In this document: one piece after another, positions 19,174-40,625 of the stretch
Numbering within the stretch: the first letter of the stretch is position 1
Layout: each line of letters starts with the position of its first letter
Source: a virus
Lineage: Duplodnaviria > Caudoviricetes
Virus record (IMG/VR): IMGVR_UViG_3300031993_000006
Span: 160,001 to 224,000 of that record
DNA length: 64,000 bases
Direction: 5' to 3' (one strand)
The notes under the pieces: model-generated
What the model was told of the DNA's origin: nothing
The model's input: only the letters and a program-made list of their open reading frames with translations
Databases searched by the model: none
Translations under genes and position numbers: made by a program

Positions 19174-19890
19174 CTACACCATTGACGAATTAAGGTCAAC
19201 ATCCTGACTCATGAAGTTGGCCTCCCCGTCTTCGTTCGTAGTTTCCGGGGTTTCGCCCGCATTGTCTACCCAGAGCTGAACGGGGATTTTTGAGGTCTTG
19301 TCGTCAAGCTGGGCAATGAACTGGTAGCCGCTCTTAGCGAGGTTCTCGATGCATTCCTTGTCGGTGCTGTCGGCGACGATGAATGTCGGCATGTCAAGCG
19401 CGTTAAGCTGTGCACGGAGTTCCTCGTTGACTCCCTGACCCTTGTACTGGTCCGATACCGCGAAGAATTCCTGCTGTACTCGCCCGTCGAGATTGAAACC
19501 GCTGAGAAGGCTATAGTAGCGCAGAGGGGCGATTCCGCGGAAGTCTTCCTTGGTGGGGTCGACGATATTTGCCGCGGCGATTGGCCACTCCTTGTCGGTA
19601 ATGTAGACGATTGCGACGGAGTTCAGTAGACGGTCGAGGGTACTCGGGGTCGCTACCGGAACACAGCTGTCGGCGGGAGGTTCGATGCTCCGCTTGCCGT
19701 CGATGACTGCCGCGATGTCCTTGAGGGTCTTCTCGTCGATATCTGAGGGGGACTTGACATATGCCTGGAACCGGCTAGGGTCGAGTTTTGGCGCTGCTTC
19801 TTGGGTGTTTTCCGGAAGGTCGCCGATGGCTTCGCAGATGGAGACTGCGGCGTCGAGGTTGTTCATCACAGTGAAGACATTATGTTCCAT
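19174..19890 (-). CDS. GNAT-fold acetyltransferase-like protein
   Basis: Motif-A-like FFAVSDQYKGQGV and later SGYQFI. Start chosen at MEHNV downstream of AAGGA; the longer ORF call overlaps a plus-strand gene. Confidence 0.5.
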   Translation of the reverse strand: MEHNVFTVMNNLDAAVSICEAIGDLPENTQEAAPKLDPSRFQAYVKSPSDIDEKTLKDIAAVIDGKRSIEPPADSCVPVATPSTLDRLLNSVAIVYITDKEWPIAAANIVDPTKEDFRGIAPLRYYSLLSGFNLDGRVQQEFFAVSDQYKGQGVNEELRAQLNALDMPTFIVADSTDKECIENLAKSGYQFIAQLDDKTSKIPVQLWVDNAGETPETTNEDGEANFMSQDVDLNSSMV

Positions 19891-19974
19891 AGGGCCAAAT
19901 CCTTGTTTTTTAAGCGGTTCGTGCATTTTTTGCAAGTTTATATGGCTGGAGGGGCCTCTGATAATGTAGTTTTG

Positions 19975-19984
19975 TGCTATATTT
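19975..19984 (+). promoter_or_regulatory. Recurrent early/host-type promoter TGCTATATTT(G), representative copy
   Basis: Intergenic copies at 19975, 26282, 29818, 30280, 35246, 37383, 42976, 45376, 45755 (one mismatch), 49641, 52709, 55391 and 56567, with a variant at 38881. The 37383 copy has TTGACA 16 nt upstream of TATATT. Confidence 0.85.
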
Positions 19985-20001
19985 AGAAGGAAGGGAATCC
20001 T

Positions 20002-20268
20002 ATGAATGCTAAGCTGGAAGATTTTAACGATAAGTATGTCGTTGTGCCTAATTTCAAGGCCGGCGGGTTTGGATTCATGACCATTGACCGCGGCGATATG
20101 ACCGACGCGGAATGGAAAACCTGGAATGAAATCCGGAGTACACCGGAAATCAAGGAAATTATCAACAAGACCAAGAACTCCGCCGCTATTGCTACGGCAG
20201 TAGAGACGCTGTTGGATGGCAAAGGAATAATGGTATGTCGTACAAATCAGGCTCGTCCTTCTATTTAA
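20002..20268 (+). CDS. Hypothetical protein, 88 aa (possibly the N-terminus of the next gene)
   Basis: Follows a promoter and RBS; overlaps the next ORF by 34 nt. Confidence 0.6.
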   Translation: MNAKLEDFNDKYVVVPNFKAGGFGFMTIDRGDMTDAEWKTWNEIRSTPEIKEIINKTKNSAAIATAVETLLDGKGIMVCRTNQARPSI

Positions 20269-33752: not shown

Positions 33753-33868
33753 TAGGTGCTAATTTGGTGATATAGTAAAGTTTTTTAACTTTTTTCATAA
33801 AATCCCTTGAAAATGAGAAAAACTTTACTACATTATATATAAACATTGAAGCGAAAAGGATTAAAACA

Positions 33869-34006: not shown

Positions 34007-34063
34007 TGAGTCTTTTAAGTGGTTCAAAGACAGGCGGTTGCAGAAAAGCAACCGCCTTTCTTT
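33993..34063 (+). terminator. Attenuator: terminator with mutually exclusive antiterminator
   Basis: Terminator AGGCGGTTGC-AGAAAA-GCAACCGCCT-TTCTTT (34032-34063). CTGCAACTGC (33993-34002) can pair 10 bp with GCGGTTGCAG (34034-34043). Confidence 0.8.
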
Positions 34064-34067
34064 ATTA

Positions 34068-34140
34068 GCCGAGATAGCCAAGATGGTCACGGCGCCTGAC
34101 TGAAAATCAGGAGATTGTGGTTCGAGTCCGCATCTCGGCA
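34068..34140 (+). tRNA. tRNA-Phe(GAA)
   Basis: CCTGA-CTGAAAA-TCAGG; cloverleaf. Confidence 0.93.
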
Positions 34141-34153
34141 TAGATTATAATAT

Positions 34154-34228
34154 GGGCCTTTAGCTCAGCTTTGGAAGAGCGCCTGCTTTGCAAGCAGGAG
34201 GCCACCGGTTCGAGCCCGGTAGGGTCCA
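34154..34228 (+). tRNA. tRNA-Ala(TGC)
   Basis: CCTGC-TTTGCAA-GCAGG; G3:U70. Confidence 0.95.
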
Positions 34229-34241
34229 CTATAAATTTTGA

Positions 34242-34317
34242 GGGCTGTTAGCTCAGTTTTTGGTAGAGCGCCTGCATGGCATGCAGGAGGTCACCGGTTC
34301 GAACCCGGTATGGTCCA
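34242..34317 (+). tRNA. tRNA-Ala(GGC)
   Basis: CCTGC-ATGGCAT-GCAGG; G3:U70. Confidence 0.95.
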
Positions 34318-34321
34318 TTAA

Positions 34322-34404
34322 GCCGGTGTGTGCAGAGTGGCAATTGCAGCGGTCTGTAAAACCGCCGCCTAATGGCTTCGTAGGTTCGAGTCCTTCCGCC
34401 GGCA
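34322..34404 (+). tRNA. tRNA-Tyr(GTA)
   Basis: GCGGT-CTGTAAA-ACCGC; long variable arm. Confidence 0.93.
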
Positions 34405-34418
34405 TAATTATTTTGTTT

Positions 34419-34493
34419 GGGCCTTTAGCTCAGTTTTGGTAGAGCGTTCGCTTCGCATGCGAGAGGTCACCGGTTCGATTCCGGTAGGGTCCA
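34419..34493 (+). tRNA. tRNA-Ala(CGC)
   Basis: TTCGC-TTCGCAT-GCGAG; G3:U70. Confidence 0.93.
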
Positions 34494-34507
34494 CTATATA
34501 AATTCAT

Positions 34508-34626
34508 GGGCTTCAAATACAGATGGGTTCTGTGTGACAAGAGGATGAATTCCCGGCAAGTCGAGACAAAGGGCGATACTGCCGGGGCTCAAGCGCACGG
34601 GTCTGGTTCGAATCCAGGGGGGTCCA
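34508..34626 (+). ncRNA. 119-nt Ala-acceptor tRNA-like RNA resembling a tmRNA tRNA-like domain with no mRNA domain
   Basis: Acceptor GGGCTTC/GGGGTCC-A with G3:U70; no D-stem; T-arm TCTGG-TTCGAAT-CCAGG; a long irregular helix replaces the anticodon arm. Confidence 0.65.
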
Positions 34627-34658
34627 CTAGGTAGCCTTTGGTTACAAACAAATTATTT

Positions 34659-34731
34659 TCCACCTTAGCTCAGTTGGTAGAGCGTTCGCCTGTTAAGCGA
34701 AGGGTCCCTGGTTCGAGTCCAGGAGGTGGAG
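34659..34731 (+). tRNA. tRNA-Asn(GTT)
   Basis: TTCGC-CTGTTAA-GCGAA. Confidence 0.95.
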
Positions 34732-34746
34732 CTAAGAACAAATTAA

Positions 34747-34817
34747 TGGGGTGTGGTGTAACGGTAGCACCGCAGATTCTGAATCTGCTAGTTTTGGTTC
34801 GAGCCCAGGCGCCCCAA
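34747..34817 (+). tRNA. tRNA-Gln(CTG)
   Basis: GCAGA-TTCTGAA-TCTGC. Confidence 0.93.
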
Positions 34818-34822
34818 TAACT

Positions 34823-34902
34823 GCCGTGGTGGCGGAATAGGTAGACGCGATGCTCTCAAAAAGCATTTCGAAAGAGTGACAGTTCGAGTCTGTCCCACGG
34901 CA
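34823..34902 (+). tRNA. tRNA-Leu(CAA)
   Basis: ATGCT-CTCAAAA-AGCAT; variable arm. Confidence 0.93.
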
Positions 34903-34909
34903 CTAAACT

Positions 34910-34992
34910 CGGTTGGTGATGGAAGGGTAGACATAGGGTACTTAAAATCCCCCGGGAGCAACCCCGTGCGGGTCCGAGTCCCGCCCTGCCGA
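34910..34992 (+). tRNA. tRNA-Leu(TAA), somewhat divergent
   Basis: Loop CTTAAAA; single mismatches in the acceptor and anticodon stems; T-loop TCCGAGT. Confidence 0.78.
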
Positions 34993-35049
34993 CGGGACTA
35001 TGGAGGAACTATGGATAATGATTCTATTGTATCTGGACAACCGGGATTC

Positions 35050-35120
35050 TGGGCTGTAGTGTAATGGTAGCACTATAGATTTTGAATCTATTGGTCCAGG
35101 TTCGAACCCCGGCAGTCCAA
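35050..35120 (+). tRNA. tRNA-Gln(TTG)
   Basis: ATAGA-TTTTGAA-TCTAT. Confidence 0.92.
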
Positions 35121-35128
35121 TAAATTAT

Positions 35129-35200
35129 GGTGTGTTAGCCAAGTGGGAAGGCGGCGGTCTGCAAAACCGCCATGACCCGGTTCGATTCCGGGGTACACCT
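35129..35200 (+). tRNA. tRNA-Cys(GCA)
   Basis: GCGGT-CTGCAAA-ACCGC; U73. Confidence 0.93.
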
Positions 35201-35289
35201 CGAAACTTTTTGGCAAAAACCTCCCTCTGGGAATCAAGTTTTTTTTGCTATATTTGTAATATCAGGAGTTAGTAAAGCCGTAGTAAAAT

Positions 35290-36606
35290 CTATGGTTTAG
35301 TTTTTATCGAATCCGGGACTCCGAGCTCCGAACCATCCAACCGGAACAGTCCGGAAGTCAACCAGAAGAAGCCTTCTTTCTTGCTCAGGTTGGACAACAC
35401 ATCGCATCGAGGTATGGCGGGAAGGTCCGCTTCATGGTTTCTGGCGGCATTGATGTCGGCATCAATAACGAGGCCGCAATGCGGACAGATGTATTCCTTT
35501 CCCTTCCTAGATGCTTTGTGCACGAGGCCGCAATCTGAACACCGTTGAGAGCGATACGCGGAAGCCTGAAGCTGAACACGGACCCCGCGTTCCTCGCATT
35601 TCATCATGAGCGTATCTCGGATGATTGGATTGGACCAATGGCTCATCAGACGACTGGATTTCTGCTGATATCGGATATTAACGACATCCTCCAGTCCTAT
35701 TTCCTTCACTCCGTCGAGATTGAGCCGTTTCATGGCGAAGTTGACATAGTTCTTCCTTTCTTCTACAGCCTTCTTGAACGCCTTGGAACCCTTTTTCTTT
35801 TTGGACATCTTGTCCATTATGGTCATCAGGTTTATGGTCAGTTTACGGCCGGGACTCCCTTTCTTTGGCGCATTTACTATCAGGTCTGGTGTCACGTTTC
35901 CGTTGGACAGTGATATGGTGGTCTTTGCGCCCTGGTCGGCACCGATTTTGACACCATCATCTCGCAATGGAACATCCTTCTGCCAACGGAGCTGTATACC
36001 GTACTCGTCTATGAGGTATCCGTTGCACCGGGTCCATGTTCCGTCAAGGAACCTGTCAAGATGTCTATGCCGGCATACCGGAAGCTTGATGTGCTCGCCA
36101 CCGGTGCATTTCAGTCGGACATATCCATAGAAATATCCATCTTCGGTCAGTTCGAAATCAGCACATTTGCTGGATACTTCGATACCGGCATCGGATAAGT
36201 CTGGCTTACGTGGAATCGAAGATTCTATCTTGTCCCATAGCCGTTCGTTATATTTCCCTTCGCCGGCGAGCTTGTCGAACATCGCGACACGCTTTGCTTC
36301 CTTGGACAACACTGCGCGGAGCTTGCCGCACAGTTGGTTGGTCAGTGAATTCAGCATACGGGCACTTAACCATGTATCAACATCAAAATGATTGTAGTCA
36401 AGGTATTTTGGAAGTGCGAACTTGAACTTTGTAATGTTGAATTCATGCTCGATGCCATCTTCATACCATATGTATCCGTTCAACCACATGTCATCGCACA
36501 GCAATTGCATCACGCGACGCCATTCCGCAAGCAGAACTGACAGTTCATTCTGTTTGCACTGGTTTGCGTACTTGCTTATGATGTGATTGGTCGAACGAGT
36601 AAACAT
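35290..36606 (-). CDS. tnpB: IS607-associated TnpB
   Basis: IGADQG, IGLEDV, YRSQRCSDCG, CPHCG, DADINAARN; RuvC D-E-D intact. Confidence 0.9.
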   Translation of the reverse strand: MFTRSTNHIISKYANQCKQNELSVLLAEWRRVMQLLCDDMWLNGYIWYEDGIEHEFNITKFKFALPKYLDYNHFDVDTWLSARMLNSLTNQLCGKLRAVLSKEAKRVAMFDKLAGEGKYNERLWDKIESSIPRKPDLSDAGIEVSSKCADFELTEDGYFYGYVRLKCTGGEHIKLPVCRHRHLDRFLDGTWTRCNGYLIDEYGIQLRWQKDVPLRDDGVKIGADQGAKTTISLSNGNVTPDLIVNAPKKGSPGRKLTINLMTIMDKMSKKKKGSKAFKKAVEERKNYVNFAMKRLNLDGVKEIGLEDVVNIRYQQKSSRLMSHWSNPIIRDTLMMKCEERGVRVQLQASAYRSQRCSDCGLVHKASRKGKEYICPHCGLVIDADINAARNHEADLPAIPRCDVLSNLSKKEGFFWLTSGLFRLDGSELGVPDSIKTKP

Positions 36607-36608
36607 GA

Positions 36609-37196
36609 CTATTCTTCCTTGGCCTCCAGGGCTTCCTTCATCTTCTTGGCCTTATTCTGCCCGCGGCGTGCTCCGTATAGGCGACAGCAGAAACTTGTAA
36701 CTATGGCTATCATGTCTTTTATAATATCCTGCTCGTTTGTATCATTGGGATACATCACATCGACAGTACAGTTCAACCTTGATAGCAACCGTTCTATATA
36801 GTTAAACCCAAACCGAGTTAATCGGTCGCGGTTCTCGCAAATTACCGTCGTCGGGTTGCTTGAAATCATTTCCCAGAACTTTGGACGGTTGTCATTCATC
36901 CCCGATGCAATTTCCTTGTATATGGCGGCAACCTTGTATCCGTTCTTCGCGGCATAATCCTTGCACCGTTCTACTTGTCTTTCAAGGTCATCCTTCTTGT
37001 CATGGGTACTTACGCGAGTATAGATGACTACCCGTTCTTCCTTGACTAACGGATTGGCTATGTCCATGTCGACATAGATACTCTTGGTATCTGGGTCCTG
37101 AAAAGCACCCGGTATCTTTCCGGCATGGAACTTGTCGTTTGCCGTCTGGTAGCTCATGCCGTTTTCCTTGGCGTATTTGGATAACTTTACTTTCAT
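36609..37196 (-). CDS. tnpA: IS607 serine-recombinase transposase
   Basis: N-terminal HTH; IYTRVST, LERQ, EIASG, DRLTRFG, SFCCRLYG. Confidence 0.95.
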   Translation of the reverse strand: MKVKLSKYAKENGMSYQTANDKFHAGKIPGAFQDPDTKSIYVDMDIANPLVKEERVVIYTRVSTHDKKDDLERQVERCKDYAAKNGYKVAAIYKEIASGMNDNRPKFWEMISSNPTTVICENRDRLTRFGFNYIERLLSRLNCTVDVMYPNDTNEQDIIKDMIAIVTSFCCRLYGARRGQNKAKKMKEALEAKEE

Positions 37197-39469: not shown

Positions 39470-39812
39470 TAACTGTGGAGATAGAATAGCTTGCGCGGCA
39501 TCGAGATGCCTGAATGTTGTCGCGTGGAGTTTCTTGGGGTGACAGGTATCTAGCCCCATGTTATTTTTTGGAGTTTTTCTCCCCTGCCTTTCGGGCGGAG
39601 GGTTCGCGCGTGGTCATCGAAGTGGTCACGCGAAGGTAAAACGATAACCGGGCGTTAATACCCGGACTATGTTTAAAAAACGCTTGTGTTCCTTTTGTAA
39701 TTTGGCCTTAAAAGGAATGAAAAGACTGGCTATATAGCGTGATGGCTAAAACCGTAATGCGGTGCGATTGATGCTGGTCAAAGAGGCAAGTTATGGCGTT
39801 TCTTGCCTTACC

Positions 39813-39886
39813 CGGGCGGGTAGCTCAGTTGGTAGAGCAGCGGTAGCGAATGCCGCGGGTCGCTGGTTCAAGTCCAAGTCGCTCCA
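39813..39886 (+). pseudogene. Degenerate tRNA or tRNA mimic (loop AGCGAAT, nominal CGA)
   Basis: Perfect D arm and anticodon stem; no U33; mismatched T and acceptor stems; short variable loop. Confidence 0.6.
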
Positions 39887-40255
39887 CTAAAGAATTTGAT
39901 AAAGTTTGCCGTGCAGACGAATGGTTTTCTCGTGGGTTTTCCTACTTCATTGAACGAGATTATCGTGAGTCTGCATTGAGAAAGCCCGTATAGCCATACG
40001 GGAAACCTCAGGGGTATGACAGGCACCCGGGCATACTTGTCTGTTTTACTATGTCTTCCGGGTAATTGTAGTGCAATGACAGTTTTCTCTTTTTGTTTCT
40101 TTTCGCATTACAGATATACGGGGTCCGGCTCCAAAGGTAATCTGGAAGCCGTGAGTACATTACATTATTGTGCATACCCGGGTGGCTCCGGGAGATTCCT
40201 GGGTTGAATTTCTTGGATGGCCGCTAGCAGGTTTTCAAGGGAAACAACCCATTCC

Positions 40256-40545: not shown

Positions 40546-40625
40546 CGGGGTGTAGTTCAGCCAGGTTATTATAGAGTGCTTGCTTTGGAAGCAAGATGTC
40601 GTCAGTTCGAATCTGGCTACCCCGA
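40546..40625 (+). tRNA. tRNA-Pro(TGG), A37 variant
   Basis: CTTGC-TTTGGAA-GCAAG; C1-G72; enlarged D loop. Confidence 0.88.

Follow-up and report, generated by a model that had tools for sequence, protein, structure and literature searches.

An anticodon-less RNA with an alanine-type acceptor and a tmRNA-like layout in the tRNA arrays of related rumen jumbo phages

The window analysed here is a 64,000-nt stretch comprising bases 160001–224000 of a 260-kb IMG/VR phage record that is 91 per cent complete, and it carries within a tRNA array a 119-nt RNA gene in which an alanine-type acceptor stem and a canonical T arm are joined to a long, conserved and irregular arm. The RNA is probably alanine-chargeable and non-decoding. 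It is a tRNA-like domain (TLD) by architecture, and by sequence it cannot be filed as tmRNA. We infer, with middling confidence, that it is a tagless, alanine-chargeable TLD-like RNA acting on SmpB and the trans-translation machinery. The parts of the gene are as follows, in window coordinates.

34508–34626, + strand: whole tRNA-like RNA gene, 119 nt from position 1 to discriminator A73 (from sequence; 93–98 per cent conserved in L121, L141, L143 and L144)
34508–34514, + strand: 5′ strand of the acceptor stem, GGGCUUC, with G3 at 34510
34515–34529, + strand: D region, 15 nt (AAAUACAGAUGGGUU), with an invariant GG at 34526–34527 (alignment A3)
34530–34536, + strand: 5′ strand of helix H1, CUGUGUG, in the place of the anticodon stem, pairing with 34594–34601
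34541–34543, + strand: 5′ strand of the middle helix, GAG, pairing with CUC at 34588–34590 (predicted fold; invariant among homologues)
34552–34586, + strand: distal helix CCCGGCA/UGCCGGG (34552–34558 with 34580–34586), closing a 21-nt loop
34588–34590, + strand: 3′ strand of the middle helix, CUC, pairing with GAG at 34541–34543
34594–34601, + strand: 3′ strand of helix H1, CGCACGGG, including a G able to bulge; joins the T stem directly
34602–34618, + strand: T arm UCUGG-UUCGAAU-CCAGG (from sequence; the T stem covaries between forms)
34619–34626, + strand: 3′ strand of the acceptor stem, GGGGUCC (U70 at 34623), plus discriminator A73 (34626)

The seven acceptor pairs are G1–C72, G2–C71, G3.U70 and C4–G69, followed by U.G, U.G and C–G. 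The alanine identity set that the initial annotation had read from these letters, G3:U70 with A73, is indeed present (GGGCTTC/GGGGTCC, with A at 34626), and so is the canonical T arm that it described (TCTGG-TTCGAAT-CCAGG at 34602–34618), which lies immediately 5′ of the acceptor 3′ strand. Acceptor pairs 1–4, A73 and the CUA trailer are shared without change by the adjacent tRNA-Ala genes of the same phage; CCA is not encoded after A73 (CTA follows), and the same is true of these neighbours. The D region ends GGGTT, then C, and holds most of the substitutions seen among homologues in alignment A3. An irregular arm of ∼65 nt replaces the anticodon arm, and both of the helices that had been proposed within it can be placed, TGTGTG/CGCACG at 34531–34536 and 34594–34599 and CCCGGCA/TGCCGGG at 34552–34558 and 34580–34586. 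The 21-nt distal loop contains a small hairpin, GUCG/CGAU (34560–34563 with 34574–34577), and the distal-helix pair 34557/34581 is not kept across homologues (C–G, U.G, A.G and C.A).

A 7-nt anticodon loop on a 5-bp stem is absent from 34508–34626. Beyond position 41 the 119-nt RNA has no stop codon in any frame, and its single AUG-led frame is not conserved, a UAA being gained in the homologue L143; a small ORF or tag frame was rejected on these two grounds. The RNA thus has none of the mRNA-like domain, resume codon, tag ORF with a stop, or pseudoknots of tmRNA, and the earlier description of it as having neither anticodon nor coding domain agrees with the silence of ARAGORN and with the want of a conserved tag frame.

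Relatives were recruited through a neighbouring 912-aa protein from viral contigs, metagenome contigs and public assemblies, and the resulting sample comprises five near-identical sequences of the window type and three of a longer type. Four contigs from independent metagenomes (L121, L141, L143 and L144) carry the 119-nt RNA at the same place with 93–98 per cent identity to the window (alignment A3). The most informative of these comparisons is with L143, in which the neighbouring 912-aa protein is only 61 per cent identical and the spacer downstream of the RNA has been replaced or lost, while the RNA itself retains 111 of 119 positions, against 62/73 for tRNA-Phe, 64/76 for tRNA-Ala(cgc) and 73/83 for tRNA-Tyr. 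The arm is conserved as much as the tRNA-like ends. Variation is confined to twelve columns (11, 16, 17, 18, 33, 47, 50, 58, 60, 66, 74 and 113), eight of which fall in predicted loops; in the D region G19 and G20 never vary, and L121 carries two helix-breaking changes. A decaying pseudogene is excluded because the RNA is conserved like the flanking tRNAs while the neighbouring protein diverges, and sequence conservation of this kind marks the 119-nt RNA as a real gene under strong purifying selection. The initial annotation had considered that homologues might prove to be ordinary tRNA-Ala genes with a recent insertion; instead they keep both the RNA and its arm. Because the arm occurs only once in the 260-kb genome and likewise in the related loci, a mobile element or MITE lodged in a tRNA gene was also rejected. 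Pattern scans for further homologues, with three patterns in viral contigs and one in genome contigs, returned chance matches only, and a fourth viral-contig pattern matched only an unrelated phage tmRNA, at its 3′ end.

Longer RNAs with the same ends (GGGCUGC...GCGGUCC-A, with G3:U70, A73 and a canonical T arm) occur beside tRNA-Ala genes in further relatives.

L002: long form, 183 nt
L126, identical to L155–157: long form, 160 nt
Outgroup jumbo phage G002: long form, 158 nt

In a fourth relative, L003, there is only a possible remnant, a degenerate piece of 70 nt that resembles the others at its 5′ end and terminates in GCUCCACCA. MAFFT aligns the window RNA with the long forms at a 5′ segment (GGG-NN-CUG...GAC-A-GA) and at a 3′ segment (ACU-N-CCGGG...GCG...T arm). 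Since both end segments align, the window and long forms are regarded as homologous, with the apical part of the arm deleted or replaced. Their sequences together define a family of 119–183-nt RNAs with a TLD-like layout, adjoining tRNA-Ala genes in related rumen jumbo phages.

Aberrant genes of alanine type seem to recur in the phage group to which the window belongs. A degenerate tRNA-Ala-like gene of phage G002 (L164 2615–2700, − strand; GGGCAUUAGCUCAG...), whose ‘anticodon’ loop has 5 nt and whose T loop is non-canonical, sits between tRNA-Ala(tgc) and tRNA-Ala(ggc). In L002 (13257–13329) and L147/L148 (13755–13827) there is a 73-nt tRNA-like gene with G3:U70 and A73 (GGGGGCG...CGCUUCC-A, T loop UUCGAUU) that is not called by ARAGORN.

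The fold of the RNA bears directly on its likeness to a TLD, and of the stemless D region ending GGGTTC that had been described for it, the ending holds, while the lack of a stem has a competitor. A D-region hairpin, AUACAGA/UCUGUGU (4–7 bp, formed with 34530–34535), competes with the long helix H1 and is the MFE fold of the window sequence. In four of five homologues most of the ensemble has the long helix (probability 0.7–0.98), and the changes in L143 weaken the D hairpin. A hairpin is possible in each form, but the possible D hairpins lie in different, non-homologous registers, and it is instead the long helix that is positionally conserved across the divergent forms; a true tRNA D stem was rejected accordingly. 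The alternative hairpin, where it forms, could block binding of the SmpB type.

Covariation, which the initial annotation had proposed to look for in homologues, is seen between the two types and not within the window type, where, among five near-identical sequences, all pairs are invariant or merely broken. RNAalifold applied to the three long forms predicts an acceptor stem, an essentially unpaired D region, a 10-bp helix running straight into the T stem, and further helices, with double changes at 10 of 45 pairs; the D region of these forms is 14 nt, with a hairpin insert in L002, and only two weak pairs are predicted in it. The window form can be written in the long-form register with the same junction (C–G, U.G, a bulged G and five more pairs), and this H1 register with its bulged G is common to all forms. 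Compensatory differences between window and long forms are found at pair 4 (U–A versus C–G), pair 5 (G–C versus C–G or U.G) and pair 7 (G–C versus A–U), and the inner distal pairs GGCA/UGCC of the window match GGAA/UUCC and GUAA/UUAC of the long forms. When window and long forms were folded together from the mixed MAFFT alignment, RNAalifold recovered only the acceptor stem and T arm, owing to gap placement. These compensatory changes support a helix that stands in for the anticodon arm and runs up against the T stem. The best-supported model has an acceptor stem, a D loop of ∼15 nt with GG, a long arm 0–1 nt from the T stem, and a T arm, which is the layout that the RF00023 consensus structure gives for a tmRNA TLD. 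A K-turn in the GGAUGAA loop was rejected by eye, as the opposite strand lacks the required G.A/A.G partners.

The detectors that had been suggested as a check, namely ARAGORN and the Rfam tmRNA, mt-tmRNA and tRNA models, call neither a tRNA nor a tmRNA. ARAGORN returns nothing at 34508–34626 in tRNA, intron, tmRNA or mitochondrial modes. The best Rfam match at E ≤ 10 is tRNA-Sec (RF01852) at 16.8 bits (E = 0.5), against a gathering score of 47; at the same threshold the tmRNA-family models (RF00023, clan CL00001), that for mt-tmRNA included, do not match the window RNA, and the Rfam tmRNA models do not match the long forms. The canonical tRNA model (RF00005) has no match at 34508–34626, where a cloverleaf with an anticodon arm is lacking. 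Under the same conditions RF00023 scores a positive control, the TLD-only RNA of mycobacteriophage DS6A, at 34.7 bits (E = 7e-13). Because the tmRNA models fail on the window RNA and yet score that of DS6A, the conserved TLD sequence signature, to which the contacts to SmpB presumably belong, is absent. The match to the tmRNA TLD claimed at the outset therefore stands for the acceptor, D region, helix and T arm and fails for the sequence signature, which the covariance models do not recognise. As to origin, the RNA could have come from a tRNA-Ala, or it could be a tmRNA diverged beyond recognition.

Several other identities were tried and rejected. A tRNA-Sec or allo-tRNA is contradicted by the 16.8 bits against a gathering score of 47 and by a 44-nt insertion where the anticodon arm would be expected, and an intron-containing tRNA by the negative ARAGORN -i run, by the lack of any anticodon stem or loop once the arm is removed, and by the lack of a bulge–helix–bulge motif. 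Local alignment found no sequence similarity between the window RNA and the full tmRNA of sister phages, and its scores lay within the range of shuffled sequences, so that a deletion derivative of the clade’s tmRNA was discarded. Low-scoring tmRNA-model matches in G001 and G002 were, among those inspected, all ordinary tRNAs, a single 76-nt match in G003 standing apart. With its long conserved arm, its missing tmRNA signature and its place among the tRNA-Ala genes of rumen jumbo phages, the family is absent from Rfam and undescribed.

Phage RNAs of this general kind are already known, and the concept has a published precedent. Mycobacteriophage DS6A has a ‘TLD only’ tmRNA, and a similar molecule inhibits tmRNA, perhaps by titrating SmpB (PMC4131195; PMC11915505); the DS6A form has been listed among CDS-less forms (PMC11915505). 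We located the DS6A gene at JN698994 28478–28557. Like the window RNA it is phage-encoded, has G3:U70 and A73, no tag frame and no encoded CCA (CTA follows), and combines a GG-containing, unpaired D region of ∼14 nt with a helix that stands where the anticodon arm would be and borders on a canonical T arm. In contrast, the DS6A RNA is 80 nt long with a 5-bp helix and is recognised by RF00023, whereas that of the window measures 119 nt, has a conserved multi-helix arm of ∼65 nt and matches no tmRNA model, so that it does not belong to the DS6A type; it also differs in lying inside a tRNA array beside tRNA-Ala genes.

The likeness to the TLD of bacterial and phage tmRNA (SsrA) extends to the alanine identity, the T arm, the elbow-forming GG and the geometry of a P2-like helix. 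As in tmRNA, a D region of 14–15 nt without a stem is followed by a P2a-like helix 0–1 nt from the T stem, subject to the competing D hairpin in the window form, and the tmRNAs of the phage group, like the window RNA, are located in tRNA islands. Unlike SsrA, the window RNA is without mRNA-like domain, resume codon, tag, pseudoknots and TLD sequence signature. Reduced organellar tmRNAs, which include apparently CDS-less plastid forms of ∼65 bp in Mallomonadaceae and mitochondrial forms (PMC11915505), likewise have a tRNA-like domain with little or no coding part, but they retain detectable tmRNA homology, which the window RNA lacks even against the Rfam mt-tmRNA model.

A further comparison is offered by RNAC and RNAD (species 1 and 2) of T4, stable RNAs in the T4 tRNA cluster whose roles are still unknown (PMC3014915). 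They lie at NC_000866 70908–71171, and RNAC ends in a canonical T arm and an imperfect acceptor-like stem. Both are, like the window RNA, small RNAs encoded in a phage tRNA cluster and free of an anticodon; they differ from it in having no G3:U70 or alanine identity and another internal fold, and there is no relationship beyond the generic T arm. The window RNA falls into a descriptive class of phage tRNA-cluster RNAs (acceptor/T end, no anticodon, no ORF), which is not a homology family.

The gene is set in a tight array of eleven tRNA genes spanning 34068–35201 (ARAGORN, Rfam), ahead of which are a promoter-like site at 33807 and a strong terminator-like hairpin at 34032–34057. It begins 13 nt after tRNA-Ala(cgc) and ends 32 nt before tRNA-Asn, a tRNA-like spacing within the array, and no promoter of its own was found at the locus. 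The adjoining elements are as follows.

34154–34494, + strand: three canonical tRNA-Ala genes (tgc, ggc, cgc) with tRNA-Tyr among them, directly upstream in the common array (ARAGORN, Rfam)
34631–34645, + strand: small hairpin GUAGCC-UUU-GGUUAC followed by an A/U-rich stretch, between the 119-nt RNA and tRNA-Asn

The three neighbouring tRNA-Ala genes noted at the outset are thus confirmed directly upstream, with anticodons tgc, ggc and cgc. The spacer hairpin at 34631–34645 has a version with a UUCG loop in L121, and the spacer is replaced or absent in L141, L143 and L144; many other hairpins are present in the tRNA spacers of the window phage. In L141 (14256–14345) and L144 (5789–5878) a structured insert of ∼95 nt (GAAATGGCACTAATC...GGTTAAGCGGCCAC), perhaps another small RNA, stands before tRNA-Asn instead of the short hairpin spacer. 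The related contigs come from bovine and rumen metagenomes.

The distribution of the RNA among these phages was compared with that of full tmRNA. In the sister phages L002, L123 and L145–L149 a full tmRNA, whose tag is ADNAFAYAAAA or a variant of it, follows tRNA-Thr(cgt); in L002 it lies at 19736–20097 (101 bits). No tmRNA, SmpB or PTH2 was found in the window genome (91 per cent complete), and no tmRNA in L141, L126/L155, the L003 record or G002 (93 per cent complete). An RNA with the alanine acceptor is present in all four tmRNA-less lineages (the window clade, the L126 clade, L003, in which only the 70-nt remnant is left, and G002) and in one of seven tmRNA-bearing contigs or records, namely L002; in G001, which has a tmRNA, the tRNA array contains no such RNA. 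A naive Fisher test of RNA presence against tmRNA absence gives p = 0.015, and in a quick, unfinished tree the ingroup phages with tmRNA form one clade, so that few independent events lie behind the distribution. Because L002 carries both the full tmRNA and the long form, the two are not strict alternatives. The opposite distribution is a hint of a functional link and not proof of one.

The region in which the sister phages keep their tmRNA has features of its own. In the window (39471–39565), L002 (19640–19735) and L003 (19847–19935), tRNA-Thr(cgt) is followed by a non-coding element of ∼95 nt that is conserved among the three. Immediately after this element comes the full tmRNA in L002 and its relatives, and an unrelated, hairpin-rich stretch of ∼250 nt in the window. 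After the tmRNA position a large non-coding region is conserved between L002 (20100–20540) and L003 (19980–20500) (e.g. GGCCACGCGAGCGTAAAGCGGTAAGGGCCCGCTAATAGGCCCAGTG) and matches no Rfam family at the gathering threshold. A PTH2 (peptidyl-tRNA hydrolase) gene lies inside the tRNA island of sister phages (L145 14927–15367, L146, L147, L149 and L155 10725–11162).

How such an RNA would be matured and charged can be read from the established biochemistry of tRNA and tmRNA. RNase P and the 3′ processing enzymes need only an acceptor/T minihelix, and AlaRS charges any acceptor helix with G3:U70. In the reading that we prefer, the 119-nt RNA would be transcribed as part of the tRNA array, released by RNase P and the 3′ processing enzymes, given its tail by the CCA enzyme, as the neighbouring tRNAs also require, and alanylated by the host AlaRS through the acceptor stem with G3:U70. 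Without an anticodon it would be unable to decode a codon or enter normal decoding, and its GG-containing D loop may form an elbow with the T arm. Binding of SmpB could then make the RNA a tag-free acceptor of nascent chains in stalled ribosomes, or it could titrate SmpB from the host tmRNA, and in the window lineage the RNA would take the place held by the full tmRNA gene in sister lineages. A wider version of this proposal, about which we are doubtful, would have a whole family of tagless rescue or SmpB-hijacking RNAs, drawn from tRNA-Ala or from an unrecognisable tmRNA, replacing tmRNA in several jumbo-phage lineages, with the arm recruiting an additional factor.

The conserved arm (34536–34593) has no role in a pure TLD model, and it is because the arm is conserved and the TLD signature missing that a decoy or partner role apart from SmpB is kept as a tentative possibility. 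The RNA would then be a non-decoding paralogue of tRNA-Ala outside trans-translation, matured and probably alanylated. It would act as a decoy, soaking up a host factor that reads the acceptor, T arm or elbow of tRNAs (AlaRS, EF-Tu, a modification enzyme or a defence nuclease directed at tRNA), or it would donate alanine independently of the ribosome, and its arm would bind a phage or host protein. We consider this conceivable rather than probable. The identity of acceptor pairs 1–4 and A73 to the phage’s own tRNA-Ala genes and the failure of the tmRNA models are consistent with such a paralogue, as is T4 RNAC, an anticodon-less tRNA-cluster RNA in a phage without a tmRNA link (PMC3014915), and an arm conserved as well as the tRNA-like part points to a specific extra ligand. 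However, no candidate partner gene is linked to the RNA, a short minihelix would be enough for a decoy of AlaRS or EF-Tu and yet the TLD-like junction is conserved across forms, and the distribution opposite to tmRNA would be left unexplained.

Two further accounts place the RNA outside any function in trans. It is unlikely that the locus is a structural or processing element of the polycistronic tRNA transcript, which would recruit RNase P or RNase Z or stabilise the precursor and leave a mature RNA without a role of its own: its close packing in the array, the lack of a separate promoter and the abundance of other spacer hairpins would suit such an element, but the G3:U70/A73 set and the whole 65-nt arm are kept at no less than 93 per cent identity where true spacers are changed or replaced, and the ordinary tRNAs of the array already supply processing sites. 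A tRNA-Ala pseudogene in decay, or a tRNA-Ala gene split by an intron or by a mobile insertion, is very improbable. The three adjoining tRNA-Ala genes, the aberrant tRNA-Ala-like genes of relatives and the two helix-breaking changes in L121 could be read in its favour; against these stand conservation equal to or above that of most flanking functional tRNAs, the single-copy arm and the negative intron mode of ARAGORN, and removal of the arm leaves a 3-bp stem with no anticodon loop and no bulge–helix–bulge motif. A group I intron would also have to be far longer than the arm.

Phage tRNA arrays are usually annotated from the calls of tRNA and tmRNA finders only, and RNAs of this kind consequently go unseen. 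If the preferred reading is correct and SmpB or stalled ribosomes are engaged, giant phages would manipulate ribosome rescue in two interchangeable ways, by a full tmRNA or by a tagless mimic, and the window RNA would provide a natural system for what a TLD alone does in vivo. If they are not engaged, it would be a tRNA mimic with an unknown partner, like RNAC and RNAD of T4.

Directly after tRNA-Cys, at the end of the array, the window has an IS607-type pair (35290–37196, − strand).

36609–37196, − strand: TnpA, serine recombinase, of the IS607-type pair
35290–36606, − strand: TnpB with a Cas12f1-like TNB domain, of the IS607-type pair

An 830-aa TnpB-like gene is found at a similar place in the related phages L144, L145 and L158, and DUF559-type ORFs lie within the tRNA arrays of L144, L147 and L158. 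In L002 (13990–14725) and L003 (13997–14840) a free-standing ORF of ∼240–280 aa, which may be a homing endonuclease, breaks the tRNA array just before tRNA-Asn and occupies the position that the 119-nt RNA has in the window. Further along the window, at 39813–39887 (+ strand), ARAGORN reports a 75-nt ‘tRNA-Ser(cga)’ without the long variable arm that Ser tRNAs have; its position 33 is G, its acceptor (GGG...UCC-A, G3.U70-like) is mismatched and its T stem is poor. This gene scores below the Rfam gathering threshold and is conserved in L141 (17487–17561). At 40546–40625 (+ strand) Rfam calls a tRNA at 49.2 bits that is missing from the ARAGORN list.
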